A stretch of DNA of 64,000 bases, from contig OZ076409.1 of assembly GCA_964187785.1 (NCBI GenBank), positions 36,768,001 through 36,832,000 on the forward strand, in the 5' to 3' direction. The translations under genes and the position numbers were made by a program. Source of the DNA: Amphiscolops sp. MND2022. Its lineage: Eukaryota. Numbering within the stretch: position 1 is the first letter of the stretch; each line of letters begins with the position of its first letter. Shown piece after piece: positions 8,165 through 48,999 of this stretch. The notes below the pieces were generated by a model. The model worked only from the letters and a program-made list of their open reading frames with translations, had not been told where the DNA came from and ran no database searches.

Positions 8165-8231
8165 CGGCTCGCTGCGCAATTTCAAATTTGCCTCTCCTCC
8201 TCTCTTCTTTGCAGCTCGGGGGGGTGAAGCA

Positions 8232-18647: not shown

Positions 18648-19443
18648 AGAAAAACGTCACGAATTCACCCAATTTTTCTCCGGTTTTTGACTTCATCAAG
18701 AACTGTTTGTGCAAAAAAGTAACACATATCGCGAATTACAATAATAAAAACGTTCCAGACAAAATAACTAGTAATGCAGTACAGTACGCTTTTCAAAATA
18801 AGTTTTTCCGGTTTAACATTACGTCGGATTATGCTGTAATTTCGTGGGTTAGGATAAAAACATTTAATCGAACGAACACGCCATCCACTGTAGGCTTTTG
18901 GAAAAAATGAATTTTCTTGATAGAAAAGTTCTTTAAAATGACTTCCCAAATTGTAAACCCCCCAAAATTGGAATTTTTTTTGCAAATTTCGAGATAATTT
19001 GAAAAGTTTTGTGGGAGAAGAAACAGCAAAGAAAGACTAGCTATGCACTTTGCTTCGTTGATACAAACATTGTCGTTTTGCTCAAAATCATCTCGGAATG
19101 ACTCTAAAAAGTCTAAAAACATCTAGAACGATGTTTTTTGTCCCTATTTTGCTATTTTTGTAAAATTTTTGAGAGAGTTGGCTGATTAGAATTCTAAAAT
19201 TGTTCAACGGCAAACCAAACTTCTAATTAGCATTTTCATAGTGCATTGGCTACTCTTGTGTCTCAAACATATGTTGTTGCTAGAAGAGTGTGAGGCCGAA
19301 CCTATCCCGCTGGTCAGCGGTCGTCTTGTTTTGATTAAACTGTATGTTTGTTTGGTCATGAACTGAAATGATAGATTAGCTTTTGATCATATATTTTCGT
19401 CTGTTTTTGGAGACTTTTCATATGCACATGAATGTTTTTGCAG

Positions 19444-22130: not shown

Positions 22131-25082
22131 GTAAATAATTTCTTATTGACAAATTCTATTTCTATTACACAGTTGCAACGCAGTTCCATGGAGCATTGTA
22201 AGTACTTACTGTGGAAGCGATAAAAACTCAGAGGGCCGAGATTTCTTTACAGTTTTGATAATCAAAAAGGATCTTTTTTATTTTATTTCCAGATCGACTT
22301 CACAGATGGAACGAAAATAACATCAACAGAGGTAAGATACATACATGAATATGTATACCGTTTGAAGCCTTATGATTTTTTTCAGTGTTCTGTTTTCATT
22401 ATTCTACCATTCCAATGCATGATTTGCATGAACTTTCAATTTTTTGAGCACAAGAATATCACTTTTGAGACCATATATTGTTGCAACACGCTCTAGCCGC
22501 GCCTTATAGCTGCATTTTATTGGTACTGGCCAAATATCAAACCAAAATTGTTCCAATGATGAGTCATTTTCTTCCACAGTTTTTAGCTTCAAGATACGAC
22601 GTAAAACAGTGTCACTGGGCCCTTTGTCTCTTCTTCAATCTAAACTTGTTTTCATTGCCTGTCATGAAACTTTTGAGCAATGATTGCCTGAAAAATCAGT
22701 TGAGCACCCACTGGCTCTATGTTTTATACTTTAGAGGCATCAAACTTTTCGTTGATAATTGTCGGAATATATCATGGTTGGAAGGTCATATGATATCGTC
22801 GGTTATCTCGCTGGCTAGCATTAAGTCAGTTTTTAGTAGGCGCATTTTAGAAGAAAATGTGCCCGACTATTACCGTGGCTATTTTTTTCCCGAGGTAAAT
22901 TACGTTTCACTGAAGAGGAAGGGGAGGGTTCAAAAAGCGCTCCCATATTGCTCAGCACGCGACATCCAAACTGTCGAAGCGTTTTCCGAACACGAAAGAC
23001 ACCCTTTGCGTGTTACTCTAATCTTTTCTGAAGTTTTCATAGAAAAAACTCTAAAATATTTTTAAAACTTAGCGCTTTTTGAGCATTAAGTCGGGCACCG
23101 ATTTGAGACGTTCCCGTCTTATTATAACTAAACATGCGTAAATGCGCAATTTCTCTATTTTGGCGTCTACAAAAGTCCTATGACAATGCGCGAAGCACAT
23201 AACTTTGTTAGAACTGGATTTATGTCGTTTGTAGACTCGTCGGTATAGTAAAAGCAGCTGGAAAAGCTGCCTATACCATGCTTTGTTATAACTCATTTGG
23301 CTAACTCGGTGTTTACTTATCAAACGCTACTTCTCACTACTTAAAAATAAACTAGAAATGACGCTGGCGATGGAAGTGTTCGAATTGATCAACCAATTGA
23401 TCTCTCCGAGTGAATTTTACTATTTTTTTCGTAGGAAAAGGAACCAAGTACACGAAAAGGGCCGACCGGCATGCATATATTAGAGATGTCATCCCAACTT
23501 TCGACTCGAAGCATTCGACCTCGTACCTCCCCCAGTCCCAAGCTGATAGCACTTAGAGGCGCGCTGACGAAACTCAGAATAAGTCAGATAATAGTTGGAA
23601 TTGATAGCCCATGAGACATTGGGGCGTTTGCGCATATCTTCGGAACCCTTCCACGAGCGTAGGAGGAGCATCGACCCTATATTAAGAAACCTTGAATGTT
23701 ATGTAAATTGCCACCAGTTGATACTAGGATCGTGAATATTAACTAAGATGTTCACGTACCAACCCTAAGTAAAATACATGTAAAATACATTAATCGGCTC
23801 AGGGAGCGCAGTGTAACGTTTGTTTGAGGCACGTCGGACCGGACGCGCGGGCCGTCCAATAAACGACATTTGACTTTGTCTCGTTAGACCTGAAAGGAAC
23901 CGTATTAACGAAAGTAGTCGAATATTACCGTGAAAGAAACTGTATTTGTGACCCATCCGGGGGTAACCACTTTTTGTAAACAAACATTACGCATATCATG
24001 TAACTCGGGAACCCTCGACCGTGGAACCATATAACTTGGAATGTGGCAACTTTGGATGAGTTCAAATCACTTCAAAGTCACGGGCGTACCTCAAGATCAT
24101 TTCAGGAGCGACCCCTGATTACATGAAAAAATGTATCTAAAACATGTAAATCAGCGTTTTTCCGTGATAATTCAAGCATTTCAGCCAGGCGAAAAAATTC
24201 GCCATGCACCGCACTTACAATGACAAAAAAGTACCCTCGCACGCGAGAGTATGTAAACCAGGTTATTGAAGGTCATGGAGCAACTCTCTGGACATCAGAA
24301 AGTTCTTGTGCAACTTGAAATATGAGAGAATATGGACTTCGGACAAGATGTTGAACTATTTTTCGTTGGCGGAAAAAAAAACTTTGGTCGAAGTCAAAAC
24401 TAGTCGTGCTCGCTATGCTCTAAAAGGAATAGGTAAACATGAAAGTGAAAGCATGCAAACGTAAGGTGCCGACGCCTAATAACAAAAACGTCAAGTAGAA
24501 AGTGATGATGCAACCTCCAGAAACACATGCAATGAGTAAACCAAATTGAGGCGGAATCGAATGAGAATTGAATCGACACAATCGAGTTAGAGAGCTAAAA
24601 GCTAGTTGAGTCTCGCGGAGACAGGATACTTTTCTAGAAGCTTGCGAAGTCGCTAGCTCAGAGTAGATTGGGGACTTGTGATTTGGTTGACGCTGCAGTT
24701 TCAACAAGATTCAATTGCGCCTAACCTACGTGGCTGAACCTCGAATTCGATTGCAGTCGTATCCTTTTATTGGGGATTGTAGATAGTACTTCGTGAATAA
24801 ATTCAACTGGATTTTATAGCTATCATCTTCATATTCAATTGAAGTATTGCAATCTGATTCTCGTGATTTAATAGTCATAAGCAGATAGAGTAACAACTGG
24901 AGAGATAAATTGACAGTAACTACCAAAGAATTGGCTAACTCACCAAAACAACTTTTTTCTGTTAAGCTTTCAATTGGAGGTAAAACCCTCTCCAAGCCCT
25001 AAATGGGATTTTCTGACAGTAATCAAAATTTCGACATCAATTCTGTCGTAAACACGGTTATAAAATGTTAAACTTGGTTCAG

Positions 25083-25280
25083 TTGAAAGCGTATTGGGAG
25101 TTGTGGGTGGAGAAGATCAAAGACGCACCTCCAATCAGCAAGGATGCCACTGTGAACCAGATCATAGTGCCCACCATTGACACAGTGCGCATCCAGACTC
25201 TGGCTCAGATGCTGGTCACCCATCAGAAAGCTGTTCTGTTCGTGGGTCAAACGGGAACTGGCAAGTCTGTGTATCTCAAT
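25083..25280 (+). CDS. DNAH7: dynein heavy chain exon (AAA3 P-loop)
   Basis: IIVPTIDTVR...VGQTGTGKSVYLN|gtaag; followed by a 17.7-kb intron. Confidence 0.92.
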
Positions 25281-26711
25281 GTAAGAATATACAAATACTT
25301 GGTTGCGAAATTTCAATACTTGAAAAATCCAAGTGTTTTCGACATGGTTGAACAACTAATTTTGCTGCTATGGAAAAACTTCGACAACAATTTTACTGTC
25401 ACTGGCAACTTGTGTAGCTGTATAGACAGTGGACAGTTCAAAAAATGTTTGAATTAACCCAAAGTGCTACTTTTTGCATATTTCGAATCAATTTGTTTTC
25501 ATTTTTGGTAAATTTTTTGATACACTAAATGAAAAAACGATAATTGAAAGGGTTTTTCTTGAATTTTTAAAAAATGCCAACACGTGCTAGCACTCCACCG
25601 CAAACCACCGGTGACCATCAATGGACACATTTTCGGGCTGGACACCGGTGGAAAATTTTTCAAAAATTCGTAAAATTTACTCACGTCTTGAAATGACGAG
25701 CTTCGGACGTGCTTGACAGTGTGAATTTGGCTTGTCTTCATTTCATTAAAATGCATGTTTTCTTTGGTTTCGACCGATTATTAGTTATTTCAGAGGGTTA
25801 TCTTAATGACCCGGGTAGCATTGAAGACGCTTTTTGGCTCCACAGTCCCTGAAGTCACTTGATAGGTATTATGTTATGAATTTGGTGTTAGGACCTAAAA
25901 TCACTGAATTTTGATGGAATAATTTTTGATGGCCCAAAATTTTTCTGATAAAGTAAGACCTAAAATCACCGTATTTTGGTGGAATGAAGCCTAAAATTGG
26001 GCAGTGATTGGATGCCAACTCGGGATTGATACTGATTCTTTATCGGAACTTTCGGTGATTACCGGTGGCCACCGCAAAAGCTGCAAATGCCGCCTCAGTG
26101 GAGCATCGGTCACCACCGGTGAACTGCGATTGGATGCCAACCCTTGAAGTTTCTTTTTATATACGTCCATGATGAAACGCACACTGGATTGTCGTTACTT
26201 TCTACTGATTGAGTTATAGACTATGTTTGACAAAATTCCCCCTTAGCTCCGGAGTTTGTCATTTTTAGTCGTCGCTTTTTGTGAAACAAAAAATGGTCGA
26301 CAACTACAGTGACCGTTTTTCTCCACACCACAGACCTCACACTGGAAGATCCACTTTAACAGAAGTTCTCTAGGCCTTCCTACCTTACTAGAAAGCAACC
26401 TCTGGTGCTTCCAAAGAGTGTCGCCTTTGCGTACCACAGTTTTAAAAAGTTTTTTCGTTCCTGGACAACTCAGAAGGTTCGGTTTTACTGTTTTTTTCCG
26501 GTATTTTGAGCCTTTTTCTGAACTTTTTTTAATTTGCAAAATGTTATTTTGATTTTCTGCAGCCAACTGGATAATAAAAAAGCCCAAAGGGTGCCCTTTT
26601 TGCGTTTTCGGCACTGTAAGACTTTTCAAAAAGTTTTCATGCTTGCAAAGGTAAAGGAAAAATCAGAGAGTCCCTGCTTTGGGTCTTTTCGGTACTATGC
26701 AACTTTTCTGA

Positions 26712-28248
26712 TGTCGCAGGCTACCGCCTGCGATGGCCTACTTTATCAAGTCACCCCGGAAGACGACATTAATATTCCAGGACCAGGAGTCCTACCGATC
26801 TAATGGAACTCAAAACTTACGTAACATATTAGTGAGTATTGCTATCTTACTAAACAAACACTTTTTCACGTTATTATGGCGCTTATTTTGATAAATTATG
26901 CAATTTTCCTAAACACTCTGACCTAAGGTCAGTTTGACCGCAATCATTTACTTTTTATTATTTCATATACTGATATGTAAAAATTGTTGATGAACTATTT
27001 TGTCTATTGTGAACCAATCCATACATACAAATATGCAATTAATTGCTTGTTGCAGTTTTGAAATGTAAATTAGAAATCAGTTGAATAAAGCAATGAACTG
27101 GTAAAGGTAAAGGAAACGCGTTCAACTTGTACAGCGCTGCCGTCAAGTTGACGCGTTGTCCAAAATACTTTTAACCAATCAGATTGCGCCAATAGTATAG
27201 TGCTGAAGTCACGCGGACGTTAGGTCCCATTTGCTATTGAAAGCTGTATAATACTCTCAGAAGCATGGAATATTACAGTTCACATGTATTCATTAATATC
27301 TGTTTTGTTGTTGCTTCCATTTATATATTAGAGGACAAGTGACATGTATCAGTTCACCCTAGTTTCTATTTATAGCCAATATTATGTCATAATTAGGTTG
27401 TTGCTATTTTTAATGATGACATCATTAGTATTTTTACTCTATGACGTCCAAAATACTGAGTGTCATGGTGATAAAAGTATATAAACGATGGGTCTGATTT
27501 TGTAAATTCAATTCAATACTGTTGCAGCAATACACATACGCATTGTGAAAGTTAGACAAACTGTTCAATTTACTCTTAAAACGCAAATCTCTCATTAAAA
27601 TGCCCTCAACTAGAAAGCAGAAAGCCAGAGAAAAGCGCTCAAGACAATCAGACGTAATGTCAGACATTGAAAATCTAGAAGTAATGTTGGGAAATTACCA
27701 GGAAGATGATCAAGTTCGGGATGAAGATATTGGTAACACTGATTTTGACTTAGAGTCAAGGGGACCTCAGAGAGAAACTAATTCAATTAGCGGAAACTTT
27801 AGGTCAATATTGAATACTAATGTGAGTGAGAATAGTGAAATTACAGTTGAAACTAGTAGAGCAATAAATTCAGAAATTTCTTCGCAAATGTCTAGGAAAT
27901 TAGATAAAATGATATCAGATCTCAATTCGCATATTCTGAATGCAATTGACTCTGCAATTGAAGAGAAAGTGATTCCCAGCATCAGGAATGCATTGGAAAG
28001 TCAAAATTCATCAAAAAATACAAATACGGACCTTCGGTCAGATGGACCTCATCCGAGTACTTTTGGTCAAGTACGTCCGCAAAGGGACCTTAGGTCAGTT
28101 GGACCTCAGCAACAAATTGCTGGAAAAGCGTCCCAGGATGCTAAGAAAGACTTCCCTAGGTTAGTAACGATGAGTAGTAACCAAATAAATCATCAAAGAG
28201 AGAATTCAGCAGATTCTTGTGGGAGTGATGATGAAAATGGTTACGACA
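26712..28248 (+). repeat. Gypsy 5' LTR (1537 bp), includes gag codons 1-216
   Basis: Direct repeat of 40987-42525, with about 9 substitutions and 2 indels counted by eye. Confidence 0.95.
27366..27485 (+). promoter_or_regulatory. Putative LTR Pol II promoter (MEF2-like x2, CRE-like, TATA)
   Basis: CTATTTATAG 27366, CTATTTTTAA 27404, TGACGTC 27442, TATATAAA 27478; same motif set in the solo LTR at 48687-48820. Confidence 0.5.
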
Positions 28249-29396
28249 TGGTGACAGGAGCCAATCTTACCCCACAAATGGTCCCTGAGTTCCTGACCGG
28301 ACGGCCCATGCAATCCCAAAATGAAATTCCCCATCAACAGTGTGTCCACGATGACACGCTTGATACCACCATCACTGCACAAATACCACCAGTCCCTACT
28401 AACAATAGGGACGTACCCTTTGAAGCACATATAGATCCCATCAACAGACTTGCAGATGTTATTATGGGAATGAATAACAAACCGTCAGCCCAGACACTGA
28501 TGGTACGACCAGTCAATACGACCACACTAACATTTGATGGTAAATCCGAAATGTTTGAACTGTTCGAAGATCTTTTTCACACAATGATAAAGATGCAACC
28601 GGACATGACGGAAACAATGAAAATCAATCATTTTCATTCGCTGTTGCGCAAAAATGCGCTACAGACCTTTCGTAACATCAATTCAGCCAATAGACAAACT
28701 CTTGAGGACATACTAGCAGTCTTCCGGAGGAAATATGTCAAACCCGAGTCTCAGGCAACCGCCAAACACAAATGGCACAAATTAGTATTTGACCCGAATA
28801 CTATGAAACTGCCTGACTTCCTTGAAGAACTCAACCAAGGTGCTGAAAAGGCCTTTGGCGAACATGCCCAAGCAATGATCGACAGTCTGCTGTATGCTAA
28901 ATTGCCGCCCAAACTGAAACGTTCAGTCAATATGGCGCGACTTGAAAACGCAACGTATGAAGAGATTGTCACACACCTCGAACGAGAATTAGAATTGAAT
29001 GGACTTGAGGAAGGTGACGACATTCACGTCCCCACAATGTCCACTGCCCCCACAGCAACACGACCGGGAACTGGCCTCCTTTCGTCTGGCATTGACCCAA
29101 ATGTCACTTGCAACTACTGCAAAAAACCGGGACATGTCAAAGATGACTGCCGAAAACTCAAACGAAAGGAGGAACAAAAGCCCAACGGCGGGCAGGATAC
29201 CAAGAAAGAATATCCCAAATGTCCAACATGCGACAAAACGAATCACCCGGCGGAACGTTGTTGGAAAGGCGCTGGAGCCCACCTCAAGCCCAAAAACCTC
29301 AAATTGGACAATTCCAAAACCGAGGAAACTACCATAGGTCAAGATGACTCCAACAACAAACCTACTACTTCCATTCTCAAAAACCCAAAAAACTAG
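27600..29396 (+). CDS. Gypsy Gag (598 aa), starting inside the 5' LTR
   Basis: TFDGKSEMFELFEDLF capsid-like start; two CCHC knuckles CNYCKKPGHVKDDC and CPTCDKTNHPAERC; ends at A AAA AAC TAG. Confidence 0.9.
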   Translation: MPSTRKQKAREKRSRQSDVMSDIENLEVMLGNYQEDDQVRDEDIGNTDFDLESRGPQRETNSISGNFRSILNTNVSENSEITVETSRAINSEISSQMSRKLDKMISDLNSHILNAIDSAIEEKVIPSIRNALESQNSSKNTNTDLRSDGPHPSTFGQVRPQRDLRSVGPQQQIAGKASQDAKKDFPRLVTMSSNQINHQRENSADSCGSDDENGYDMVTGANLTPQMVPEFLTGRPMQSQNEIPHQQCVHDDTLDTTITAQIPPVPTNNRDVPFEAHIDPINRLADVIMGMNNKPSAQTLMVRPVNTTTLTFDGKSEMFELFEDLFHTMIKMQPDMTETMKINHFHSLLRKNALQTFRNINSANRQTLEDILAVFRRKYVKPESQATAKHKWHKLVFDPNTMKLPDFLEELNQGAEKAFGEHAQAMIDSLLYAKLPPKLKRSVNMARLENATYEEIVTHLERELELNGLEEGDDIHVPTMSTAPTATRPGTGLLSSGIDPNVTCNYCKKPGHVKDDCRKLKRKEEQKPNGGQDTKKEYPKCPTCDKTNHPAERCWKGAGAHLKPKNLKLDNSKTEETTIGQDDSNNKPTTSILKNPKN

Positions 29397-32300
29397 ATGT
29401 GCCACGACTCCACTTTAACGAAAAACTCCGTGTCAGGCAATAGATAATATCTGACCCCCCTACGGTATATTACACTGAACATTACTCTTCACTCAAAGAA
29501 AACTCATCGGCTGACTGGCAGCAGCACGTGAAACACATTCCTAGTAACCTTCAAAAACTGGACCTCCAGTCTGATGGACGGCACTGTAACTTTACCACTA
29601 TTCGTCCTATCCCTCTTGTAGATAACTATAACCCCTACTATCTCGACCCAGACTTTGGTTTCGATCCTTATTGGGACATTCAAATCTACAACCAGCATTA
29701 TTTACATTTCTACAACAATTTTACCAAAAATACCATCGATATAGAACCTGATTCACCCGAGATCGACCAGAATCTCAATACCCACTTGTCCGCGGCGGCA
29801 GTTGACCCTTGGCAAACCACACGAGGTGCTCCCTCTATGGCAACTTATGCCAAACCACAGACGTACCTTCCCCCAGACGGACCTGTGGTCACCCTGACCG
29901 CAACCGTGGCAGAACGCTACATGCACACGCTCATCTCACGAGACGGTGAACCTGATTACGTCCCCTTAACGACGAACTTGGGACTCAAATATAAACGACG
30001 CATGCTCTACTTTCCAATGGATTTTGGCGAACTAACATTAGATGGCCTTGTAGACACGGGAGCGCTATCTAGCGCTATCCCAGAAGCTGATCTACGTAAA
30101 ATCCGCTTATTAGCTCCTCAGTCCAAAATTAAAGAGGGCCCAGCCCCAAACTTCCAAATTATGGTCGCTAATGGACAGTTGGAGACTCCAAAGAGCACAG
30201 TTGAACTCAAATTTGAGGTCGGGGACATCGACTTCCACGAGATATTCATAGTCATGGAAAAACTTACAAGTCCGCTAATTGGTCTCTCATTCCTTCAACG
30301 GAACAACACCATCTTAGATGTGCGGCAGGGAATATTAAATTTCCCATTCTTTTCCATGCAATTGAAAACAGAGGACCACAAATACACTAATGTCATGGAA
30401 CCTATCTGTACCCGAGAGGATATAACTATTCCCCCCAATGACAGACACATGGTCTCCATCTACTCTCAACTATATGACGACACCAACGTCACTGGAATTC
30501 TTCAACCGAGCAATGACCTCGCAGAAGATGGCGATATAACCTTCTGTGCTGCTCTAGTCACACTGACCCAAGGTCAGGTTGCGATCCACGTGAACAATTT
30601 CACCGATCAACCTTACACACTTAAAAAGGGTTCCCACATGGCAAATTTCTCTGTCCTGACCCCAGAACAGATGAAATACGTCAAACCGATTGACCCGGTG
30701 ACCACATGCCACCTCTTACAAGAGAACCCGGAGCATGCCGTCTACTATGCTAGCAGTCTAATCAAATCTCCGAGAAATGACGAAGACAAAGAGAACTATT
30801 GGTTCCCTACCCCAGAAGACCCTGGAGACCCTCAGTCTCATACACCGATCCAACAACGGATTTTGAAAGAACTATACAGCCTCCAAGAGTTAAAAAAACT
30901 CAATCCTCAGGATAACCCTGAGTCCAGAAAACAATTTCTTGCCCATTTTGACTGGACAGATTCTACACTGAATCCAGCCGAAATAACCCAAATTGAGGAA
31001 TTGTTAGTCAAATTCCACGACATCTTCGCTAGACACCGTTTCGACATAGGCATGAATGAAGATTTCAAGGTCAAATTGACTCCTAAAGACGACTCCCCTG
31101 CTTATAGCCAATGCTTACCAACACCAATCAACCTTAAAGAGGACATCCTTGTGGAATTAGGAATGTTACATCGATATGGGATCATAGCAACGCTCCCATT
31201 TTCCAAATATGCAAGCCCTATCTTTGCCCAGAAAAAACCGAATGGTAAACTCCGACTTCTGGTCGACCTCCGAAAGATCAATAATTTGATCTCTGACGAC
31301 TATATTAACAACAACCATCCCGTCAGCACGTTAACAGACGCCGCGCAACATATGGCAGGCAAAAGATTATTTTGCAAACTAGACTGTTCTCAAGCATATC
31401 ACTGCCTCCAGATGGCTGACCAGAGGTCAATTGAGATGCTAGCCTTCAATTTTGCCAGCAGAACATTTGCCTACCGCAGACTTGCACAAGGTCTAAGCAG
31501 AGCTCTGTCAGCTTTCTCGAGCTTTATGCGCGAATACCTGGATAAAGTGATCAACGCGGACCAATGCGCTCAGTACGTTGACGATATTGGAATAGCGGCC
31601 AACAACGCGATACAGCTCATCAACAACCTTCGAGCAACCTTCGAGTGCATTAGGACCGCGGGTCTCAAATTAACCATGCACAAATGTCACTTTGGAGCCA
31701 AAGGAATTGATTTCTTAGGCCGTACCATCACCCCTGAAGGAGTGCGGCCGCAACGACCCAGGGTCCAAAACTTCCTCGAGAAGACAAAATTCCCAAAATC
31801 CAAAAAAGCACTTCAGAGATACTTGGGGTTCCTGAACTACTATCGCAACTACATCCCAAGGCTTTCAGAAAAACTGACACCATTCTTCAAATTACTGAAG
31901 AGCGACGCCAAAGTCATGGTGACTCCTGATCTGCTAGAACAATTCACCGAGATCAACAAAGCTCTTGACCGATGTTCTGAACTTGCACTTAAACAACCTC
32001 TGCCAAACAAACAAATAGCATTGATGACCGATGCTAGTTTCTCGGCAGCAGGTTATGCAGTTCTCATCGAGGATGATCCAATGGAGAAATATAGTTCGAT
32101 GCGGAAAGCCTTCGCACCTGTAGCGTATGGATCCAAGACCTTTAGTCCCGCCCAATTGAAAATGTCCATATACGCGAAAGAATTCTTAGCAATATTCTTT
32201 GCCTTCAAAGAATTTGGACACATCTTTTGGGGGACTCCGAAATCGGTGATAATTCTAACAGACAATAAGTCGGTCACTCGTTTTTTCCAAACTAAAATTA

Positions 32301-34572
32301 TTCCACCAACACTGTGGAACGCTTGTGACTATGTCATGCAGTTCAACTTCACCATAGCACATATACCTGGCAAAAACAACACCGCTGCTGACTATCTGTC
32401 TCGTCTAGAAATCAGCCCTAAAGAAAAACTCATACTCCGCATACGAGAAGACATCTCAATAACGCCCATTGAACTTAACGTCCAATCGGCGGGAGTAACC
32501 GAAGAAGAACAAATATTCTACACGGATGACGACGACGAAACTGAAGAACAAATTTGGAAGCGAAAACGGGACGCCAGGTCAAAACCTTCAAACAACTTCC
32601 CGACATTTTGATGGAAAAACTTAACAAACATGATAGTACATATTTTCAAACTCCAACTTTACAGAAATTAGCCAAACCAATCACCATGGCCATTGAACAA
32701 CAGAATGACATTATCTTACAACAATTGCGATTCAAATTACAAAAAGAGGAATATTCCGAAACCATTTTACAGCAAGATCCACGTTACCGACACTACTGCC
32801 GTCAAATTGACCGTCTGTCCGTCCAGGACGATATCATTTTCCGAGATTATTATGATGAAACTGGCAACGTCCAATTCCGCCAGGCGTTGCTACCGAAACA
32901 CCTTGTCACTGATCTACTCCAATCACTACACGGAGCTGCGAACAAACACCCGGGGATTTCCAAAATGCTTCAGGAAATCCGTCAAAAATATTATTACCCA
33001 GGAATTGCAAAAATTGTCAAAAAATGGGTACAAGGGTGTGAAATCTGTATAAAAGACAAAAGGATCAAAAATACATCGATAACACCAGAATTACTCAACC
33101 TGCCTGAATGGGACCTCGGCCCGGAAGATGCCTTACAAATTGATCTTCTACCTAACCTACCACCTAGTGGAGGATACGAAAACATCATAACGGCCCTAGA
33201 CGTTTTTTCAAGGTACCTTTTCGCCTATCCAGTAACTGACGCATCAGCCACTAGTACAGCAAAAGTACTTATCGATATAATGACCAGACACACTTACCTA
33301 CCAACTACACTGATCACCGACAAAGGAACAGCATTTACGTCCCGCCTAGTTGACGAAATTGCAAAAATCCTAGGCATTCAAATAAAGTGTGCAACGACGA
33401 AACATCCTCAAACAATTGGTAAACTAGAACGCACTCATGCAAGTCTTAAAGGAAACCTTAAAATGGCATCAGGCGAATATCGACGACAATGGCACAAATA
33501 TCTACCATTGGCAGTACTCAATTATAACACGACCTATCATTCAAGCCTAGGATGTGAACCTTCCAGAATTTTTCATGGCCGGATACCGTATAATATCCTA
33601 GACCACAGGTTAGGACTCAATCCTAACCCAAAGATCTTACCTACAACTGATTTTGCGGAGGAATTTCAAAGGCGCACGCAAATACTTATAGACAGAACAA
33701 AGAAAAACATAATGCAATCCTACCTAAAATACAAGGAATACTATGACCGGAAGGCTAAGGCAGCCCCATTAGAACTCGGCGGCTACTGTTTCATTTTGCA
33801 ACCACTAGCTGACCATCAGGGCTCTAAAATTCCATTCCGGGAGTTCAGGTGTATTGGACCTTATGTCATCGAAAAGGTCCTCCCCAATGAGAATTACATT
33901 GTACGCAAACTCAATTCTAACAAGACACAGATCTTACATCGAATCCGATTACGAAAATACACGCCAAACGTTACGCTACAAGACAATCGCCCGCAAGGCA
34001 ATCTGCAAGCGGATGACGAAATCATCATCCCTCAAGACGATTTATATATTATTTCGTGGGAAACGGATTTTGACGAATTTCCCACCGCTGATGCTTCCAA
34101 AAGCAAGTCGGCCGAGTCTTTAGCTGATTCTGATTAACAGGACACTATAATTACAGATTTGGACCTGCGGTCCAACCGACGCGACGAAAATACCGATGAC
34201 GCTACTACTGGGCAGCGTGGAAACGAAAGCTGCGATGAGGACCTTAGGTCAAATCGACGACAACAAGATACTCGCTCAGATGACACTGAGCAATTACCCG
34301 AGCAACCAGACGCAAATATGACCGACACGGAACTTAGGTCAACTCGACCGCAGCAGGATACTGATTCAAAAATGGACGAAACGACCTCTAAACGCCCTTC
34401 AGAAGCGGAAGATTCGGAATTTTTCGATTTTAGAGGCAAGGATATAATCGTGCCCGATTTATCAAACGATGAAAATGAGGAAATGGTTGTAGAAAATGAA
34501 AGTCCCAGGGGAGGGAAATACAATCTACGTCCCAACCCGACTCCAAACTTTAGTGATGAATACAGATACTAG
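29393..34572 (+). pseudogene. Gypsy pol (protease, dUTPase-like insert, RT, RNase H, integrase), disrupted
   Basis: LVDTGA; QYVDD; MTDAS; H..H..CEIC; QIDLL/TDKGTAF/KLER; IGPY module. In the -1 frame relative to gag. Lesions: TAG at 29441-29443, frameshift near 32590, in-frame TAA at 34135-34137. Confidence 0.92.
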
Positions 34573-34725
34573 CAAAAGAAAGTAAATTCGCTACACCCCC
34601 TGATTTTTACTGAATTGGACTCTTGGGGGGCTTTGACTAACTATCGACTCTTTATAACTCAACAAAGACTGAACATCTATATCAAACATAAACACAAGAA
34701 AAGTTCACAAATATACAAAATACAA

Positions 34726-37700
34726 TTAGGATTTACTACATCCAGCAACTAGATCTTCTGCAGAACGGGTCAACTCAGTTTCACTCAGCAACTGCGTGGT
34801 TTTCTTCATCAGTGCCCCATACTTCTTCTTCTTGGCCTTACTGACACTGGATGATTCAGACTCAAGATCCACTGGTGGCGCGGGTTGAAATGAACCTTTA
34901 GGGTCCAACTGCTCCAAAAGTTTAGTACGTCCAAAATAGTCGACGCTCAACCAAGGATAATACACGTCACTTAGCCCCTGTGTCCCAAAATCTGGCTCTA
35001 GCAGAAGAAATTTGGAAATCGACTGCTCGGAAGTAACAGTCTCCACTCCTCGAGGCACATTGCGGAAGTATGATTGTACTGGCAGTATCACGTCAACTTG
35101 ACTGCAGGTCGGATCTTCAGTATTAACTGAGCCGAAAGTAACAACTGGCAAACTCTCAAAGGGTTCATCCAAGCAAAAGCAGGCAAGACGAAACAACTTG
35201 TACAACAAGGGACGACTGGTCAATGATGCCTGAGCTACTAAGAAATCGACAGTGTCTTTCACGAACAGGGTAGGCTGTATGAGATCAGGAAAAGTCTGAC
35301 GCATCACGTCAACGAAGGAACGATACTCTTCAGTGCAGGGACACTCTTGATCAAGGGAGAAATAGCCCCTGGGTCGGAAACTCGTAAATAACTGCCTGTG
35401 GCAGTACATGGCATGTTCTATGGACCCAGTCAATAGAGTTTCAAGGTCAAACGAACCCAGTCCTTTCACCAGATCAGTGGTCAAACTATTTTGGTGCTGC
35501 ATTGAATTGAAGAGATGTGTGACGTAACTCCGTGCAGCTCGTCCAAATTCTTCTTTATGCTTGCCAGACAGGGCATCTAGAGGCAAGCCTTCAGTTTGTT
35601 TGTCCTTTACGTCACGCTCAGCTTTGGCCTTACATGCGTTGTCTAATTTTGTGCCCAGCTTGATCCGAGTTATGAACTCAGAAACACTAAGTGCAGCGAC
35701 TCGCTTTAGGTCCAGTTCCAAGATCTCTGACCATTGGTCCTCAGGAGGGATGCCTTTGGGACTAGCACATCTGCGGGCAAGTGTGAGGAGATACTGGCAA
35801 AGTTGGCGAAAGTATAAAACCCTCGCTCTCTGCGGCCTGACAAGCTGATGGAGAAACTCGTTGCATCTAAACATCATAAATATTCAACGATATTGATTAA
35901 GGTGTAATTCCCAAGCAGGAGAAAACTTGACTAACAATCACGCGAGAGCTTTTGAAACAACTCCAATTTACAGGTGAATAAATCGTCACACAATATATAC
36001 CATTCCAAATTCTGAGGCTAGAATAGAACAAGACCATAATCAGCAGGTTATTCAATTAAGGACCTTAAGTCAAAATGACCACACCAATTTACCTGCTTGG
36101 ACACTCCCATCATGGGATAGTACAGAGAGTGAGCGGTTAGGAATTCGGTAACAGAGCTCCAGTTGTTCAACAATTCACGACATAGAATGTGAAGCTTCGC
36201 AACATCAAGTCGACAATCACGAATAGCCTAAACCAGAGATCAATTTGAGACTGACAGAAAAGAGTTATATAAAACAAAGGAAGCAGTGATGCTAACCCTA
36301 GCCAATTCAGGGGTAACGAGAATCCACTCTAGGTCGAGACTTCCTCCGAGGCAAACGACAATATACTTGATCACAGCATAGAAGTTTATTCTGCCGAAAA
36401 CGCTGTAGCTCTTCTTATGCATGACCGTCTCCAGAGAAATTTCCTCAAAGCGCTTTCTGCTCTGGACGGCCAGTGAGAAAAGGGGACACTCATCTAGTAA
36501 CTGGACTAAAGATTGGGTACAGCCACTACAACACACAGGACTAGCGCGAGGAGAAATTGCTGCCAAGAGGTAAGACAATAGGCACAACTCTGCTGAGGTC
36601 TGCCCGACTGTGCGTCCAGTTCTTCGGATCAATACTCGACACAATTGACCCTCATGCCAAAACCGAAGGTGGAGAAAGAGCATGGCCCCTTCTGTTCAAA
36701 CTCGAGTGCGTAGAACCCGCTGCTCAGCACGTGATTGGCCAAATCTTCTAGCAGTTGGACGAAGATGTGATGAAATAGCACCTGCAAAACAACAGAGTAC
36801 ACGTTTAACCAAGGAAGAAGACAGTGCTTACATTGGGTCCACTTAGATTACAGATGAGGGGTTGATGATATCACAAAACCTAAGTTGACCTTAGGACAAA
36901 CAAACACGCAATTATTACTTACAGACAAACGCTCTTTGCCCCAGTTGAAATCTGTGAACAGTGACTGGTGGTTAGCAACCACCCCAATGTCTTTCCAAAG
37001 TTCACGTAGCGTTCCAAGGTTCCCGAAAGTCGGCAAAGCGTGACCCAGGATGGAGATCTGAACCCTGACGCGATTTTCAGAGGAAGAAGCCATATGGTCA
37101 TGTCCCGCCATAAACTCGTCGTAGAAGGGTAACTTCACGCCTATGTCTACCAACTCGACGTCAATGAACTTTGGCAATTCAGCTTCCAGTTCTAGAGGGG
37201 AAAGCAACTTCCCGTCCCTGCCCCAGGACATGATGATGGACAACTTGAGTCACAGGGTCCACGACGCCAAGGTGCTCATAGCGCCAACGTTGATCCTTGC
37301 GCAGATGACGCTCGGTAGCATGATGACGTAAAATTTCTTTTGGACCTCTGCCATAGATCGAAACGTTGCCCTTACAAATCTGGCAGTAAAATTTGTAGCG
37401 GTTCCATTTGGGATCCATAGGTCCTGAAACGAAGGTGCGAGCCCAAGACATACCCTTGAAGTATTCTTCACGCATAATCTTACAGGATCTTCCTACGCCT
37501 CGGTGCGAGCTTCTAGTTTTGGCTTTGGAGGACTTCTTTGGGTGTTTTTTGGACCTGTCTCGTTGGGCCTCATGCTTTAACTCAGCTAAGGTCTGAGCGC
37601 CCGGACTAGCACATGACTGATTTGGAATTGTGGACCCAAAGTCGCCCTGACCACAACCCGAAGGAGGAGGAGTGATCGCTTGCATTGATGAACCTTGACT

Positions 37701-39074
37701 GGAAGCAACCTCATGCGAGTATTCAGTTCCCCAAAAGTCTGACTCATTCAGATCAGGACCACTAGTGTAGCTGCCTCCTTCGGACGTAAAACCACATGAA
37801 GTCCCTTCACCTTCTGAATCGGACAAGGGAGTACGTGGAAAGGGACTCTTGCACCGATCATCCCGTCTGGTCGCCGCTCTCTCTCCCAGGCTCATCCTGC
37901 TGGCACGCATTACTACGCTGTTGAGCATTTCAAACGAGGAACGCGCGGTCTCATCTGCCACAACCTTCAAAATGTGCTCGATCTGATCGTGATTGAATGC
38001 TACAGTTGGATGGCCTCGAGGAAGACTTATAGGTTGCGACTCAGAGAAGTATTTGCGGATGACCTCTCGGCTGGTGGAAGATAACGTTGCTGACTTACTG
38101 GCTGCAGGACGCTCAGGCTCTGAATCAGTTCCGCTAGTTTCGTCACTTGGTAATCCTTCTAGTCTCGGTTGGCGCGCTGTCAAAGCATCAGCTAGAGTAG
38201 ACCGTGCGTAAGCATTGGAATCAGCGTCACTCTCAACTGGAGTTACTGCATCACTGGTTGTGGCTGCAAAGTTTGCCGCAGAAACTGGTCGGGAAGGGGA
38301 CTTGAGGTCAGACTGACCAGACGCTTCGGGAACGGTGGATGCAATACTAGGTTCCACAGAGGAAATTTCAGCCTCCTCAATCACAGAATTGATGGGTACA
38401 CGGTTTTTCTTCCTGTCAGGATCCTTGTTATCATCTTTCAGACTGGACTGAAGGTATCTTGTTGACGGGTTAAAAGAGATCACTTTCGGGCTATCAGAAC
38501 TTTGCGTGGGCTCAGGCGAGGATTTTTCAACTTGGGGAAACAAAGTCAATTGTCCACTTTCGCTCGATTTTTCCACCGAAGTGGCTTGCACTTCATATTC
38601 GTTCAGACTGGTCTCTAGCGCTGCCAATTTTCGAGAAATGTATCTCCCACAACTTTCGTCGGACCCGCTACTGCTGATAGCGTATCCTGGAGCTGCGGGC
38701 GACTCATTTTGCGCTGGCGCAGAAGTGACACCAGATCCACTAACTGTAGCTTCAGGCTCAGGAGTGGTCATTTCTACATCAGTAGTCTTTTCAACAGACT
38801 TGGATTCAATGAATGGCTGCTGTTCCTTCCGCACTTCCGGACTGGGTGAATCAGCAGGAACGAGTTCGAGAGTCTTCGGTTCAGCAGCATTGGTCTTGCT
38901 CTCATTGTCGTCCTTTGCAAGTTGAGACGTAGTGCTAAGATATTCAGTGTCATCGGAATTCTCCTGGCTAACTTCCATAGTTTCTACTGCTTGAGGAGTT
39001 AGTTGGCCAATTTGCTCATTATCTAAATGAAAAGAAATGAATTGACGCGGTTCACTTCCTGCAAATATGTCCAT
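34726..39074 (-). pseudogene. Antisense intron-containing accessory gene (BED-like Zn finger, hAT-transposase-like), frameshifted in this copy
   Basis: ORF pieces 39074-37179, 37243-36923, 36781-36297, 36227-36093, from 36017, and 35877-34726. GT-AG introns at 36922-36782, 36296-36228 and 36092-36018. CQIC-x15-HH-x4-H finger at 37391-37305. Confidence 0.65.
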
Positions 39075-40160
39075 CTTACCGCAATTTCAAAGACTTCCGG
39101 AAGCAAGTTCAAATGTTCACGCTCAAAATGAGTTGTTCACGATGGAGGAAGTAGCAAAGTTAAATGAAAGCCCTGATCAAGTTTGAATTTAACAACTTAA
39201 AGAACCAACCTGAAGGCACTTCCATGACGGAAGGTCTGAATTTTCCTCGTTTAGTCGTCACCCGGTGTTTCACTGGAGAATCGGGGTGTTTCGTTGATGG
39301 GGATTTCTCTCCGCTACGTCGGGATACTGTTAGCTGGGACGGTATTATGATTGGAAAGGCACTTTCTGACTGACGTAGACAGCTACTAGTTTCACAGTAA
39401 TATCAGAATTAGAAAGAAGTTGACCGTAAGTCAATTTGACGAGACTATAATTGGCCCACTATAGATATGACTAATACTTTATGTAGCTATATAGACCATT
39501 GGTCACATAGTCTACACGACTTTACTTCTCATATTTCGCACAATGTGTTTGAACTTCTATTTCCGCTTTACTCTGATTAAACTAAAGCAAGACGGATTAC
39601 TTACTAACTACTTTGTAATTTTTATTTATTAATTATGGACGTCGTGGCTACATGCTAAAGATCACCACCTATAACAATCATATCTATATATACAAAATGA
39701 AATTTTCCTTGTTGCGGAACCTGCCAGTGAAGTACTCGGATCAATTTCATTTTCCTTTTCCCATCTTTTATGCGATTATTCTTTCACCATTAGCCTCATT
39801 ATTTCAAATTCATCAGCTTCAGCAGCCATTTTATGCTATTATTATCATCACGCACTGGGATTGGCTACTTGAGTTGGTGCCGCCGAACTGACCGACGGTC
39901 TTTGAAGAAATTTGTTGACAGAGAATTAACAACTATCACACTTATAACGTCAAGTGACGCCTTTGAAGAACTGAATAAAAAACAATATTAAGAGGCAATT
40001 AACAACCCCAGCCGATAAATTGGTTGAAAATCTTTTGCGGAACTAGATAAGAATAAAACCTAAACAGGAAAAGCTAACCGATGGTCCGAGTAAAACCCCG
40101 CGCTTGTTTCCCGCTAGAATCGGGGTTGGACCTAAGGTCAGATAGACCGCAGAAATTTAC

Positions 40161-41078
40161 TTGCCTTATTATCATCTCGAAAACCAGTCGCTTAAAATTT
40201 TCGAAAGCAAAATTGCGAAAAAGATACTTCTCCAACGGTATATCGGTGACATGGCGTTACAATTCAACTGCGATCCCTACCCAAGGTCACTGGTAGATTT
40301 GAGCTACCAATCGTCAGAGGAAGATATGGATGTTGATTCCATAACCTCGACTCATGATGTGCAAGATTCCGTTAGCGACGATGACGACATTCAAGTCTTA
40401 GCTTGCTATCGCATCAGCCCTGAATTTCCCCAGCAATTAGTAGCAGGCCGTGCGATGACCACGGAAATCACCGAATATCTCAACGATCTTAACTTGCCAA
40501 GCAGTGAATTAGTTGAATCCGCAAGTACCTTTTCTGAACCGTCAAATTCCCTAGTGGACTGGTTTATTGGTAATCCACCACCCTCTTATTATGGACAATC
40601 AATTAGCAATCACCCGATCGCACACTGTAGCCAGGTTGACCCAGTGTCGGACTCCCCCCTTTCGCCGCCGCTGATTGATCAGCAACCTACATATGACTCC
40701 CGCCCGGATGACCACCAGTCACTTACTCGGGAAAGTTGGACCAACAATCCCCATATTACAGGACTTGGAATAAGCATGAGCGGGACCTGCGGTCAGCCAA
40801 ATGACGTCTATCATACAGGATGCATTGTGTGCGGTAAGAGTTACCCAGCAATCAAGGAGGAAATTACGCTGGGATATTTAGAGAGCATTCATATTCAAGG
40901 AGAAACATATGAGACGAGAATGGCAAAGCGCTACGCTTTTGAAGCAGGAATGAATGCGGGATCATTCATTCTTGTACCCCGGGGAGTGTCGCAGGCTACC
41001 GCCTGCGATGGCCTACTTTATCAAGTCACCCCGGAAGACGACATTAAATTTCCAGGACCAGGAGTCCTACCGATCTAA
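40161..41078 (+). CDS. Accessory ORF of unknown function running through the PPT into the 3' LTR
   Basis: 305 open codons (first ATG 40251); H-x2-CIVC motif; last 29 codons conserved with synonymous changes in the solo LTR at 48074-48163. Confidence 0.7.
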   Translation: MPYYHLENQSLKIFESKIAKKILLQRYIGDMALQFNCDPYPRSLVDLSYQSSEEDMDVDSITSTHDVQDSVSDDDDIQVLACYRISPEFPQQLVAGRAMTTEITEYLNDLNLPSSELVESASTFSEPSNSLVDWFIGNPPPSYYGQSISNHPIAHCSQVDPVSDSPLSPPLIDQQPTYDSRPDDHQSLTRESWTNNPHITGLGISMSGTCGQPNDVYHTGCIVCGKSYPAIKEEITLGYLESIHIQGETYETRMAKRYAFEAGMNAGSFILVPRGVSQATACDGLLYQVTPEDDIKFPGPGVLPI

Positions 41079-42525
41079 TGGAACTCAAAACTTACGTAAC
41101 ATATTAGTGAGTATTGCTATCTTACTAAACAAACACTTTTTCACGTTATTATGGCGCTTATTTTGATAAATTATGCAATTTTTCTAAACACTCTGACCTA
41201 AGGTCAGTTTGACCGCAATCATTTACTTTTTATTATTTCATATACTGATATGTAAAAATTGTTGATGAACTATTTTGTATATTGTGAACCAATCCATACA
41301 TACAAATATGCAATTAATTGCTTGTTGCAGTTTTGAAATGTAAATTAGAAATCAGTTGAATAAAGCAATGAACTGGTAAAGGTAAAGGAAACGCGTTCAA
41401 CTTGTACAGCGCTGCCGTCAAGTTGACGCGTTGTCCAAAATACTTTTAACCAATCAGATTGCGCCAATAGTATAGTGCTGAAGTCACACGGACGTTAGGT
41501 CCCATTTGCTATTGAAAGCTGTATAATACTCTCAGAAGCATGGAATATTACAGTTCACATGTATTCATTAATATCTGTTTTGTTGTTGCTTCCATTTATA
41601 TATTAGAGGACAAGTGACGTAATGTATCAGTTCACCCTAGTTTCTATTTATAGCCAATATTATGTCATAATTAGGTTGTTGCTATTTTTAATGATGACAT
41701 CATTAGTATTTTTACTCTATGACGTCCAAAATACTGAGTGTCATGGTGATAAAAGTATATAAACGATGGGTCTGATTTTGTAAATTCAATTCAATACTGT
41801 TGCAGCAATACACATACGCATTGTGAAAGTTAGACAAACTGTTCAATTTACTCTTAAAACGCAAATCTCTCATTAAAATCCCTCAACTAGAAAGCAGAAA
41901 GCCAGAGAAAAGCGCTCAAGACAATCAGACGTAATGTCAGACATTGAAAATCTAGATGTAATGTTGGGAAATTACCAGGAAGATGATCAAGTTCGGGATG
42001 AAGATATTGGTAACACTGATTTTGACTTAGAGTCAAGGGGACCTCAGAGAGAAACTAATTCAATTAGCGGAAACTTTAGGTCAATATTGAATACTAATGT
42101 GAGTGAGAATAGTGAAATTACAGTTGAAACTAGTAGAGCAATAAATTCAGAAATTTCTTCGCAAATGTCTAGGAAATTAGATAAAATGAGATCAGATCTC
42201 AATTCGCATATTCTGAATGCAATTGACTCTGCAATTGAAGAGAAAGTGATTCCCAGCATCAGGAATGCATTGGAAAGTCAAAATTCATCAAAAAATACAA
42301 ATACGGACCTTCGGTCAGATGGACCTCATCCGAGTACTTTTCGTCAAGTACGTCCGCAAAGGGACCTTAGGTCAGTTGGACCTCAGCAACAAATTGCTGG
42401 AAAAGCGTCCCAGGATGCTAAGAAAGACTTCCCTAGGTTAGTAACGATGAGTAGTAACCAAATAAATCATCAAAGAAAGAATTCAGCAGATTCTTGTGGG
42501 AGTGATGATGAAAATGGTTACGACA
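40987..42525 (+). repeat. Gypsy 3' LTR (1539 bp)
   Basis: Direct repeat of the 5' LTR; gag ATG lost by a 1-bp deletion near 41880. Confidence 0.95.
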
Positions 42526-42937
42526 TCTGATTTCTGTTCTTGAAACAACCGAGTTACCCTCCTTCAATCTTTAGTAGAAACATCTTTTTGTGCGCATCGA
42601 GGGCTTCTCCGATTTTTCGGCAGTGTGCTACTTATCGAAGATGTTTTTTGAAAAAAAATGATTCCAAAAAGTTTTCCACTCATTTTTTGGTTTTTAAGGT
42701 TTCTGTTTTAAACAAATCTGAAAAAAAAATGAAATCTGAAATATTTTCGAATCTCAAAGGTTTCAATAGTTCCAAAGAAAAGTTTCAATAGTTGCTCCTG
42801 AATGTTTCAAACACTTTGCTCTTTTTGAACCTTGAGCGGTGCGTCGACTTGGGCCATTCCCGGCCTGTTTACATTTTGTGTGAGTGTAAAATGAAATTTA
42901 TCAAATTGGAAAGACTCAATTTTTTGTGTGTTTTCAG

Positions 42938-45075: not shown

Positions 45076-45300
45076 TTATTTTCCGCCCCCACAATTCGGA
45101 GGAAAGTCGCCACCTGTTGGCTTTTTTTCCAAATTCCGCCAAATCTCCACTTTGTTACTCCATTTAATATGTGGATATTTCAGTCACCGTGCCCACTTGG
45201 TAGTGCGTCCGTCTGGCAAACTGGAGGTCGTGGGTTCGAACCCGGGCTGTAGCCTGAAATTTTTATGGCGGGAAATATCCCGGTGCTTAGCGGGCGTCTT
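45076..45300 (+). mobile_element. Family A repeat copy with tRNA-like core
   Basis: Family A termini; TGGTAG...GGTTCGAACCC. Confidence 0.6.
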
Positions 45301-47613: not shown

Positions 47614-47930
47614 TTATTTTCCGCCCATATCCTTCCGGGAGAGGATAGTCAATCTCTAAGTCTCTCACTTTTGCCAAATTTTGCTGTTTTAATTTTTATT
47701 TTCCGCCCAAATTTCATATGGGAAAGGAAAATATTTAAATCAAACGGTTTTTTTACAAAATTTGCCAAGAATTATTGTTCACGTAATATGAAGAAGTACA
47801 TTCACAGAATTCAACTAACATAAATTTAGTTCCATGCGATATGTATTTGTAAAGATTTTTGGACTTAAAACGATTTTGTTGCTCAAATGATTTGGGGCGG
47901 AAATATCCCGCTGGTCCGCGGGCGTCTTGT
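47614..47930 (+). mobile_element. Family A repeat copy
   Basis: Same termini as 18192-18647. Confidence 0.6.
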
Positions 47931-48999
47931 TTTAATAGAAAAGAGAAAGGTCTTCCACAGATTTTACAGAGTGGAAAATTAGGTTCGAAGCAATGTATTC
48001 AATGATTTCTTCCTGAAAAAAAGCTTGGAACAATGTTCCCCAAAGGCATCATAAAGTGACAAAATGCCAAGTGTCGCAGGCTGCCGCCTGTGACGGCAAC
48101 AAGTACCAAGTGGCCCCTAACGACAGTCACTTGTATTACATACCCGGAGTCCTACCTCTGTGATTAGTTGGACAATTGGTCCCTTTGCCTTAAACTTTTT
48201 GACTTGATTTAGTATGTTTAATATGTAAATTATTTTAGTTTACTATTATTGAACATGTAACGTATATTAGTGTTAATGTAAACCAGAAAAGGATGATCGA
48301 TGTTTATCTGTATGATAATTGAAACAGGTACTGTAATTAAGCTGTATGCAATAAAGGAAACGCGTTTAAAGTGAAATTCACTTTGGTCAGTTCGACGCGC
48401 AGTCCATTTTGATTATTATCCAATCACGTGCTAGTATTCATCATTCACTTAGTCTGCCTGTTCAGTTTGTAGTATTTAGTCAAACGGACTACCAGTCCGC
48501 AGTGCTGTAGTTGCTAACGATATTTAGTCGGAAGGACCACCGGTCCGCAAAGACGTAATATTTACATCAGCGTACTGTGCAAACAAGCGCTAACCTTTCA
48601 AGCTACGCACAACGTGATTTGAAAGGCAGACCGCCTGTCAGTCCATATCTCATTCTCCCATTCAAAGACCCATAACCCAAACGATGCTATTTTTAGATAT
48701 GATCCAATAATGACGCAATGTTGACGTCAGGACCTAGTGTCATTTTGACCATGTTTAGTGGCTATTTTTAGTAACATGACCACTGAAATTATGCTTGTCA
48801 TGCACCATTTAGTATAAATAGGTGATTCTCATTGTCCTAGGGACACAACTTTCGAATACGACGATATAAACACAAATCACAAACTGTTGCTCATTGATCA
48901 ATCTTTGTTATTGTTCTGTTCTTTTCATTTTCTCTCAGTTCAAGTTTAGTTAACTGATAAAAGCTCAATACACTTTTTTCTGAGCAATAAATTCTTCAA

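Follow-up and report, generated by a model that had tools for sequence, protein, structure and literature searches.

In complex retroviruses, accessory open reading frames (ORFs) such as HIV nef, MMTV sag and foamy virus bel2/bet, the last with an internal promoter, overlap the U3 part of the long terminal repeat (LTR), while HTLV-1 hbz and fungal genes such as Boty brtn are spliced antisense genes. The gag gene of the yeast retrotransposon Ty1 starts inside the LTR, which provides only about a dozen of its codons. Here we describe a Ty3/Gypsy element at positions 26712-42525 of a 64,000-nucleotide stretch from Amphiscolops sp. MND2022 (assembly GCA_964187785.1, contig OZ076409.1, positions 36,768,001 to 36,832,000 of the forward strand), referred to below as the window. 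We consider it likely that the element represents a complex Ty3/Gypsy lineage whose LTRs double as coding sequence, and which in addition carries an accessory gene, ORF3, and an antisense gene.

Every part of this architecture except the missing purine tract has a precedent; its scale and combination were not found in the literature searched. As in Ty1, the primer-binding site (PBS) lies inside the gag ORF and gag starts in the LTR; unlike in Ty1, the LTRs of the family code for 189-303 Gag codons instead of about a dozen, and Ty1 has the Copia order and no accessory genes. Like complex retroviruses, the family has an accessory ORF that crosses the polypurine tract (PPT) into U3, and probably internal and antisense promoters; it differs from them in having no env-like ORF, whereas retroviral gag is not started in the LTR and a full PPT is retained. 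The sequence-only reading of the window, an earlier description made from the letters alone, had not recognised the architecture. This stands for the combination but not for a PBS inside gag, since the PBS of Saccharomyces cerevisiae Ty1 lies within the GAG ORF (PMC4974528; here and below, statements on published elements refer to the consulted text of the papers cited).

Among Gypsy elements, the plant Retand/Tat group (Grande gene23, RIRE2, Retand) carries conserved antisense ORFs with their own promoter in a 3-6.5-kb region that separates pol from the 3′ LTR; the products were proposed to be nuclear regulators, and the origin of the antisense gene was called unknown (PMC7264820; PMC11963269). 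The element described here is likewise a Gypsy element with an antisense gene placed between its pol and its 3′ LTR, but TRP28 (PF04195) was not detected in it, introns are never mentioned in the Retand survey (PMC7264820), and no LTR-coded Gag is reported for Retand/Tat. Antisense accessory genes are also described for the Boty/BcGypsy1 element of Botrytis (brtn; PMC7264820; PMC8365987), a fungal Gypsy element that we liken by description only and for which the excerpts report no LTR-coded Gag, and the HTLV-1 antisense gene HBZ is mentioned in PMC11963269. Cer1 of Caenorhabditis elegans makes a spliced regulator, CERV, that shares N-terminal peptides with Gag (PMC10309623); unlike the family here, Cer1 has a 492-bp LTR, a 5′ untranslated region that extends past the LTR, and gag and pol in one frame, and the excerpts of that paper leave an antisense gene unmentioned. 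The order protease (PR)-dUTPase-reverse transcriptase (RT) and an extra ORF3 are shared with the bdelloid elements Juno, Vesta and TelKA, whose ORF3s are varied and captured (PMC5408684). The excerpts of PMC2774666, PMC3485330, PMC3601003 and PMC6451197, the last of which describes acoel genomes as Gypsy-rich, hold no closer precedent for the layout. No Gypsy element with hundreds of LTR Gag codons was found in the literature, which was searched mostly at the level of titles, with subscription papers and repeat libraries outside the scope. The lineage is real and selected, and it is a variant of Ty3/Gypsy, not a new kind of element.

Coding sequence in the LTRs

The gag frame of the window element opens at the ATG at 27600, 649 nt 5′ of the LTR end, and stays open for 598 codons across the LTR end and the PBS (GAC A/TG GTG ACA GGA, the slash marking the LTR end), as the sequence-only reading had claimed. 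In 12/12 representatives of the family, the gag start lies 568-910 nt within the 5′ LTR, the frame leaves the LTR in phase 1 without stops, and a 12-nt tRNA-Leu(CAG) PBS follows. Two broken clade II copies were kept out of this set, L143 because its LTR-coded part has a frame break and L147 because its LTR end is altered. The pattern is not due to chance: of 85 loci in which the LTR ATG and the PBS are both present, with some places counted twice, phase 1 is retained at 78 and the frame is also stop-free at 70. An N-terminus resembling M-P-S-T-R-K is shared by 103 of 120 database relatives of Gag, and 107 retain D-M-V-T-G. The features of the window discussed below are the following.

26712-42525, plus strand: Gypsy element, one member of a large 16-kb family
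26707-26711 and 42526-42530: target-site duplication (TSD) TCTGA, 5 bp, on both flanks
26712-28248, plus strand: 5′ LTR, 1537 nt, TG...CA ends
40987-42525, plus strand: 3′ LTR, 1539 nt, TG...CA ends, Gag segment without start codon
26712-26735 and 40987-41010, plus strand: LTR-start hairpin, 10 bp, overlapping ORF3 codons VSQATACDG
27478-27485, plus strand: putative TATA box for transcription of the genomic RNA, 122 nt 5′ of the gag ATG
27600-29396, plus strand: gag, 598 aa, codons 1-216 inside the LTR
28249-28260, plus strand: PBS, 12 nt complementary to the 3′ end of a host tRNA-Leu(CAG), translated as (D)M-V-T-G in Gag
29387-29393, plus strand: slippery heptamer A-AAA-AAC, directly 5′ of the gag stop
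29444-34572, plus strand: pol, with PR, degenerate dUTPase-like domain, RT (YVDD), RNase H and integrase (IN)
39074-34726, minus strand: five-exon antisense gene, probably derived from a hAT transposase
36922-36782, 36296-36228, 36092-36018 and 35935-35867, minus strand: its introns, GT-AG
39075-40211, no strand assigned: non-coding spacer, in which either strand has short conserved motifs
40146-41078, plus strand: ORF3, stop to stop, 310 aa, ending 92 nt inside the 3′ LTR
40981-40986, plus strand: position of the PPT, GGGGAG only, within ORF3 codons P-R-G-V
48072-49910, plus strand: solo LTR of subfamily B, 1839 nt, TSD CCAAG, same layout, Gag segment frame-broken

The element is assigned to Gypsy because of its pol order, LTRs and PBS: it has two TG...CA LTRs with a short TSD, the order PR-RT-RNase H-IN and a tRNA PBS beside the 5′ LTR. 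The pol domains above the Pfam cut-off are, in order, PF13975, PF00078, PF17917/PF17919, PF17921 and PF00665, and the integrase thus lies downstream of RT, which is the Gypsy order and not that of Ty1/Copia. In a PDB search, foamy, caulimoviral-type and Ty3 RTs score alike (E 1e-26 to 3e-25), with other retroviral RTs lower. Unlike in the bdelloid elements, the dUTPase-like domain lacks the catalytic motifs, and ORF3 is unrelated to theirs by Pfam.

The family has been active recently. In the window copy, the LTR pair differs by 9 substitutions and 2 small indels (0.6% divergence), its pol is broken at 3 places (stop 29441-29443, frame break ~32550-32610, stop 34135-34137), and its antisense gene has frame breaks near 37220, 36690 and 35810. 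The sequence-only reading had missed the broken pol, as well as the LTR-start hairpin and the 4.3-kb spliced antisense gene. It had described the LTR in general as ending in 216 Gag codons; in the 3′ LTR of the element, this segment lacks the gag start codon.

The host genome measures 1.07 Gb, and the family is abundant in it: DNA searches with two LTR types gave 1936 and 1561 first-look candidates (40 scored each), while Gag queries gave 23,000-26,500 (73-76 scored, most with open frames). The same gene set was found in 10 places for subfamily A, 7 for B, 8/10 for C-H and 6/6 for a sister clade (clade II), with copies fetched as two halves; the two remaining C-H places comprise one without a second LTR in the fetched stretch and one with an internal deletion. 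The sister clade was reached via an antisense protein with 30% identity. Across the family, elements measure ~15-16.5 kb and LTRs 1.5-1.9 kb, in agreement with the earlier proposal of a lineage-level layout. The RT/RNase H of relatives is 81-98% identical to that of the window copy, while the non-coding U3 is hardly alignable between the same subfamilies. No relatives were confirmed in IMG/VR searched with Gag or in JGI metagenomes searched with part of antisense exon 1. Since the family is so abundant, automated repeat libraries would be expected to hold it among their unnamed Gypsy families; even so, we regard it as rather unlikely that the layout has already been catalogued for the host group (in Repbase, Dfam, GyDB or a paper), as the literature searched holds no description and no database relative carries a name. 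One subfamily D copy (L122-L123) is interrupted by a large insertion, perhaps a Maverick, in which both strands have long ORFs; by eye, one of these resembles a protein-primed DNA polymerase.

Judged by comparison of these copies, the LTR is laid out lineage-wide as ORF3 C-terminus, presumed promoter and Gag N-terminus, with both coding blocks under purifying selection; the sequence-only reading had proposed this order, with 216 Gag codons in the LTR of the element. It had also named dN/dS on the two blocks as a check. Of 28 subfamily pairs compared over Gag codons 1-216, 21 are unsaturated and have a dN/dS (Nei-Gojobori) of 0.12-0.39, with 0.16 and 0.17 in the closest pairs, and the proportion of non-synonymous differences (pN) is lower than that of synonymous differences (pS) in all 28. 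For the last ~30 codons of ORF3, which the LTR holds, the mean pN is 0.30 vs. a pS of 0.58, again with pN<pS in 28/28 pairs. The capsid core is tighter than the LTR-coded block (dN/dS 0.01-0.05).

Several observations weigh against this reading. The remaining 7 of the 28 Gag pairs are saturated, and subfamily pairs are not mutually independent in the dN/dS and pN/pS counts; Gag codons 151-216 are loosely constrained (dN/dS 0.3-0.9), and single pairs reach a dN/dS of 0.97 for the LTR part of ORF3, the first nine LTR codons of which are also constrained by the hairpin described below. Moreover, an in-frame ATG is always formed at the LTR/PBS junction (28248 in the window copy), and no AATAAA/ATTAAA hexamer in the LTR that would place R/U5 is conserved across subfamilies. 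A poly(A) hexamer just 5′ of the gag ATG, present in the window copy and the solo LTR, was dropped as a candidate for this reason.

We consider it very improbable that the LTR limits are mis-set or that the LTR frames are passive, i.e. a duplicated gag piece or chance frames kept open by DNA signals. The hairpin does constrain the LTR start, but TG...CA ends and 5-bp TSDs are found in paired and solo copies, the PBS follows the LTR immediately, and across 150 Gag codons, synonymous divergence lies far above the non-synonymous one; such an explanation is contradicted by the data on phase, selection and LTR ends alike.

For the solo LTR at 48072-49910, the sequence-only reading had claimed the same layout and reading phase. 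The layout holds, and the copy has a TSD, but the subfamily B LTR codes for 303 Gag codons, not 216, and the Gag frame of this copy stops at 49662; the shared phase is thus shown by other subfamily B copies and not by the solo LTR.

The LTR-coded part of Gag starts with a basic stretch (7 K/R in 15 residues), and an amphipathic helix is predicted at ~80-130, heptad-like near 80-110, followed by a variable linker. Downstream of the LTR, Gag has a capsid-like region (a DUF1759 match below the cut-off) and then two CCHC knuckles. The A-AAA-AAC heptamer is present in all 5 subfamily copies inspected, with pol in the -1 frame. Of 8 subfamily copies, 7 have a TATA-like box at a distance of 113-242 nt upstream of the gag ATG, while that of the B copy is degenerate. 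The 3′ motif of tRNA-Leu(CAG), the primer tRNA of the family, has 795 matches genome-wide, 782 of them on one strand, and forms a tandem array with ~296-nt spacing (G000:C8, ~35.59-35.65 Mb).

ORF3 and the plus-strand start

At the other end of the element, the sequence-only reading had described a second ORF that crosses a short PPT and ends 92 bp inside the 3′ LTR. This arrangement recurs in all 15 copies compared, the ORF3 stop lying 89-95 nt inside the 3′ LTR in 9/9 clade I and 6/6 clade II copies. The product has an acidic/Pro-rich middle and a Cys-rich C-terminal domain. ORF3 was considered as an env gene and rejected: Pfam gives no match for it, and a membrane segment is lacking (best 19-residue hydropathy 0.89; 1 of 98 relatives reaches 1.8), and it falls outside what defines env in errantiviruses and Retroviridae.

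Conservation of ORF3 begins at the ATT at 40212 (I-A-K-K), ahead of the first conserved Met at 40251. In both clades, I-A-K-K codons with an ATT/ATA start in an A..ATTG context stand upstream of the first Met (window 40212-40250; L142-L152), and in two subfamilies stops occur a few codons further upstream. This pattern makes a non-AUG start probable for ORF3. The same region bears on another possibility, namely that the LTR segment serves mainly as exon 1 of a CERV-like regulator made by splicing, joined to ORF3 or another exon, with capsid Gag made mostly from the junction ATG. Conservation ahead of the first Met would fit it, as would a conserved YAG 13-27 nt upstream of the conservation start and the donor-like ATG/GTGA at the PBS, and Cer1 offers a precedent in CERV, in which a nuclear localisation signal and leucine zipper shared with GAG are spliced to an ORF in the env position (PMC10309623). 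We nevertheless find it quite unlikely: the distances from the AG to the ORF3 frame are of mixed phases, and stops interrupt the frame in subfamilies E and G at least, so that an initiator or a non-coding leader fits the YAG better, and the frame that continues from the LTR ATG into the capsid at 70/85 loci would be unneeded for a separate exon.

In Gypsy elements, the PPT beside the 3′ LTR measures 8-49 nt (PMC7264820). The purine run at this position is 6-8 nt in 7 clade I copies and 0 in an eighth (the G copy, through a point change), and in 4/4 clade II copies it is 2 nt (CCCGCAG/TG), mostly short of the published range. The PPT of the window copy was rightly called short earlier, being only GGGGAG, but it is better described as vestigial, or in clade II as absent. 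Since the LTR pairs of clade II are ~99% identical, elements without a purine tract have replicated recently.

A conserved 10-bp hairpin occupies the initial 24 nt of the LTR; its stability is equalled in only 7 of 2000 synonymous recodings; in one subfamily, a paired change at two wobble positions preserves a base pair. The pattern used for gathering LTR starts was biased toward the hairpin stem. The constraint from the hairpin makes it harder to explain the first nine LTR codons by protein function alone, and it raises the question of priming. At the edge of the 3′ LTR, a further site for tRNA binding was considered and rejected, the longest shared words being 5-8 nt. In the internal region, the single purine run of at least 13 nt lies within the antisense gene. 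Runs of 10-17 purines stand ~134 nt upstream of the 3′ LTR in 8/11 copies, where they are Lys/Glu codons of ORF3; it is possible that they act as a displaced purine tract.

The antisense gene

Between pol and ORF3, a five-exon gene fills 4.3 kb of the minus strand. Its four GT-AG introns keep constant positions across subfamilies, while intron sequence and length (66-192 nt) drift; L081 and L085 were excluded from the alignment because of insertions. A G copy is deleted across intron 1. In one subfamily D copy (L121), intron 4 is precisely absent, in frame, and intron 3 is longer; the loss, seen in a single copy, may be due to conversion by spliced cDNA. The antisense exon pieces have pN<pS in 36/36 and 28/28 pairs. 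Taken together, the copies point to a gene under purifying selection with a stable four-intron structure. For the last exon, 50% clusters contain 394 relatives, and none of the 10 distant ones checked bears a name. Longer or fused relatives did not turn up, which is weak evidence.

We think hAT transposase ancestry probable for this gene: a zinc finger would precede the transposase part, and the second catalytic Asp would have disappeared. The proposal predated the structure searches that gave Hermes. The model of exon 2 (pLDDT 65) has an alpha-beta3-alpha-beta-alpha topology, i.e. an RNase H-like fold; its top Foldseek match is the Hermes hAT transposase (E 0.012, prob 0.87), with integrases next, and by VIA it aligns with Hermes from residue 149 onwards (Z 5.3, rmsd 3.4, 98 aligned). 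The last-exon model (pLDDT 83) matches Hermes 385-609 (Z 4.7, rmsd 6.7, 148 aligned), at rank 10 of 48,161. Thus, two separately modelled exons match successive parts of Hermes in the same order, an RNase H-like core and then a C-terminal helical part, although both matches are weak and the likeness is at the level of fold only. Unlike Hermes, the protein shows no detectable sequence similarity to it, has ~550 extra low-complexity N-terminal residues, and lies inside a retroelement. N-terminal to the modelled exons is a BED-like CxxC..HxxxxH finger (E 0.09, not above null). In the alignment, the end of strand 1 is E/D in 26 of 28 rows (the other 2 being gaps), and the strand-4 position, mapped by eye, is S/T in 28/28; we take the latter to be the expected position of the second catalytic Asp of hAT. 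By this mapping, the second Asp is lost and the DDE triad is incomplete.

Against hAT descent stand several results. Actin-like, Argonaute and integrase folds match exon 2 at tied or higher Z by VIA; Foldseek found no match for the last-exon model, and none with E<=0.001 for either model; Pfam, including PF05699 and zf-BED, has no match for the antisense exons; and HMM and hhalign comparisons with 10 and 8 host hAT ORFs were no better than decoys. A PDB profile search with the last exon gave nothing below E 0.05, and the ESM Atlas gave only leads under 0.9. The alternative is that a host gene or another protein with an RNase H fold was captured, with a role as antisense RNA as much as protein. 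The absence of a sequence match to hATs would suit it, together with low fold scores tied with unrelated RNase H-like folds and ESM Atlas leads that point away from hAT. We give it a lesser though real chance: against it stand the matches of two separately modelled exons to Hermes in the correct order, the BED-like finger ahead of them and the strong protein-level selection. A general repeat listing held no inverted repeats of at least 40 nt inside the element; no search was aimed at hAT terminal inverted repeats or an 8-bp TSD. The host genome has at least 150 PF05699 matches, and host hAT transposase ORFs measure 368-697 aa (L154-L163).

Proposed expression and replication, and neighbouring repeats

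In the replication scheme that we propose, genomic RNA would start behind the TATA box, ~100-220 nt upstream of the gag AUG, and R-U5 would measure ~0.7-1.1 kb, most of it Gag coding sequence. This part would be copied from the 5′ end of the RNA into minus-strand strong-stop DNA; the Gag segment would thus be inherited from the RNA end at which it is translated, so that selection on Gag acts there. The Gag copy in the 3′ LTR would be a passive duplicate, in which the lost start codon of the window element could be tolerated. U3 would be copied from the 3′ end of the RNA, where ORF3 reads into the LTR. Since U5 and U3 would each be translated at the inherited end, each block would be selected in the copy that is passed on. 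Gag-Pol is presumably made by -1 frameshifting, and the LTR-coded Gag segment may form a basic helical N-terminal domain in the matrix position, serving nuclear import, RNA binding or oligomerisation.

Back-to-back internal promoters in the spacer at 39075-40211 probably drive ORF3 and the antisense gene. The antisense protein, its catalysis lost, would most likely be a nuclear DNA-binding regulator (activation, anti-silencing or targeting), and the orientation of its introns, opposite to the genomic RNA, may be the reason why they are kept. The plus strand is most likely primed by RNase H-cut RNA at the LTR edge; our best guess is that a very short G-rich signal, or a structural one such as the hairpin, marks the site in place of a classical purine tract. 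A bolder combination appears doubtful to us: priming without a PPT, set by the LTR-edge hairpin; a tamed DNA-transposon enzyme, introns included, acting as an LTR-binding regulator that activates or shields the element; and solo LTRs acting as fusion-gene traps made of a promoter plus 200 codons.

Three common working assumptions about Gypsy elements do not hold for the family: its LTRs are coding, its gag starts ahead of the PBS, and little or no purine tract adjoins its 3′ LTR. LTR-based dating and finders that require a PPT could therefore misjudge or overlook such families. Clade II, with no purine tract and ~99% identical LTR pairs, lends itself to studying how the primer of the plus strand is defined. 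If hAT descent is true, a class I element has domesticated a class II enzyme, in the form of an intron-bearing antisense gene under selection in all subfamilies, and an origin is provided for one antisense accessory gene at least. Finally, wherever a solo or 3′ LTR stands, a promoter and an open frame of 200-300 codons are directed into host DNA.

Other repeats share the window with this element. A Bel/Pao element at 894-8388 has identical LTRs of ~157 nt and a single open frame of 2163 codons (1673-8164; Peptidase_A17, DUF5641, DUF1759). Dispersed short repeat families, some of them in inverted pairs, lie at 9350-10270, 17490-19330, 45120-45300, 47690-47930, 55200-55490, 59960-60480 and 63000-63710, and are probably non-autonomous DNA transposons.

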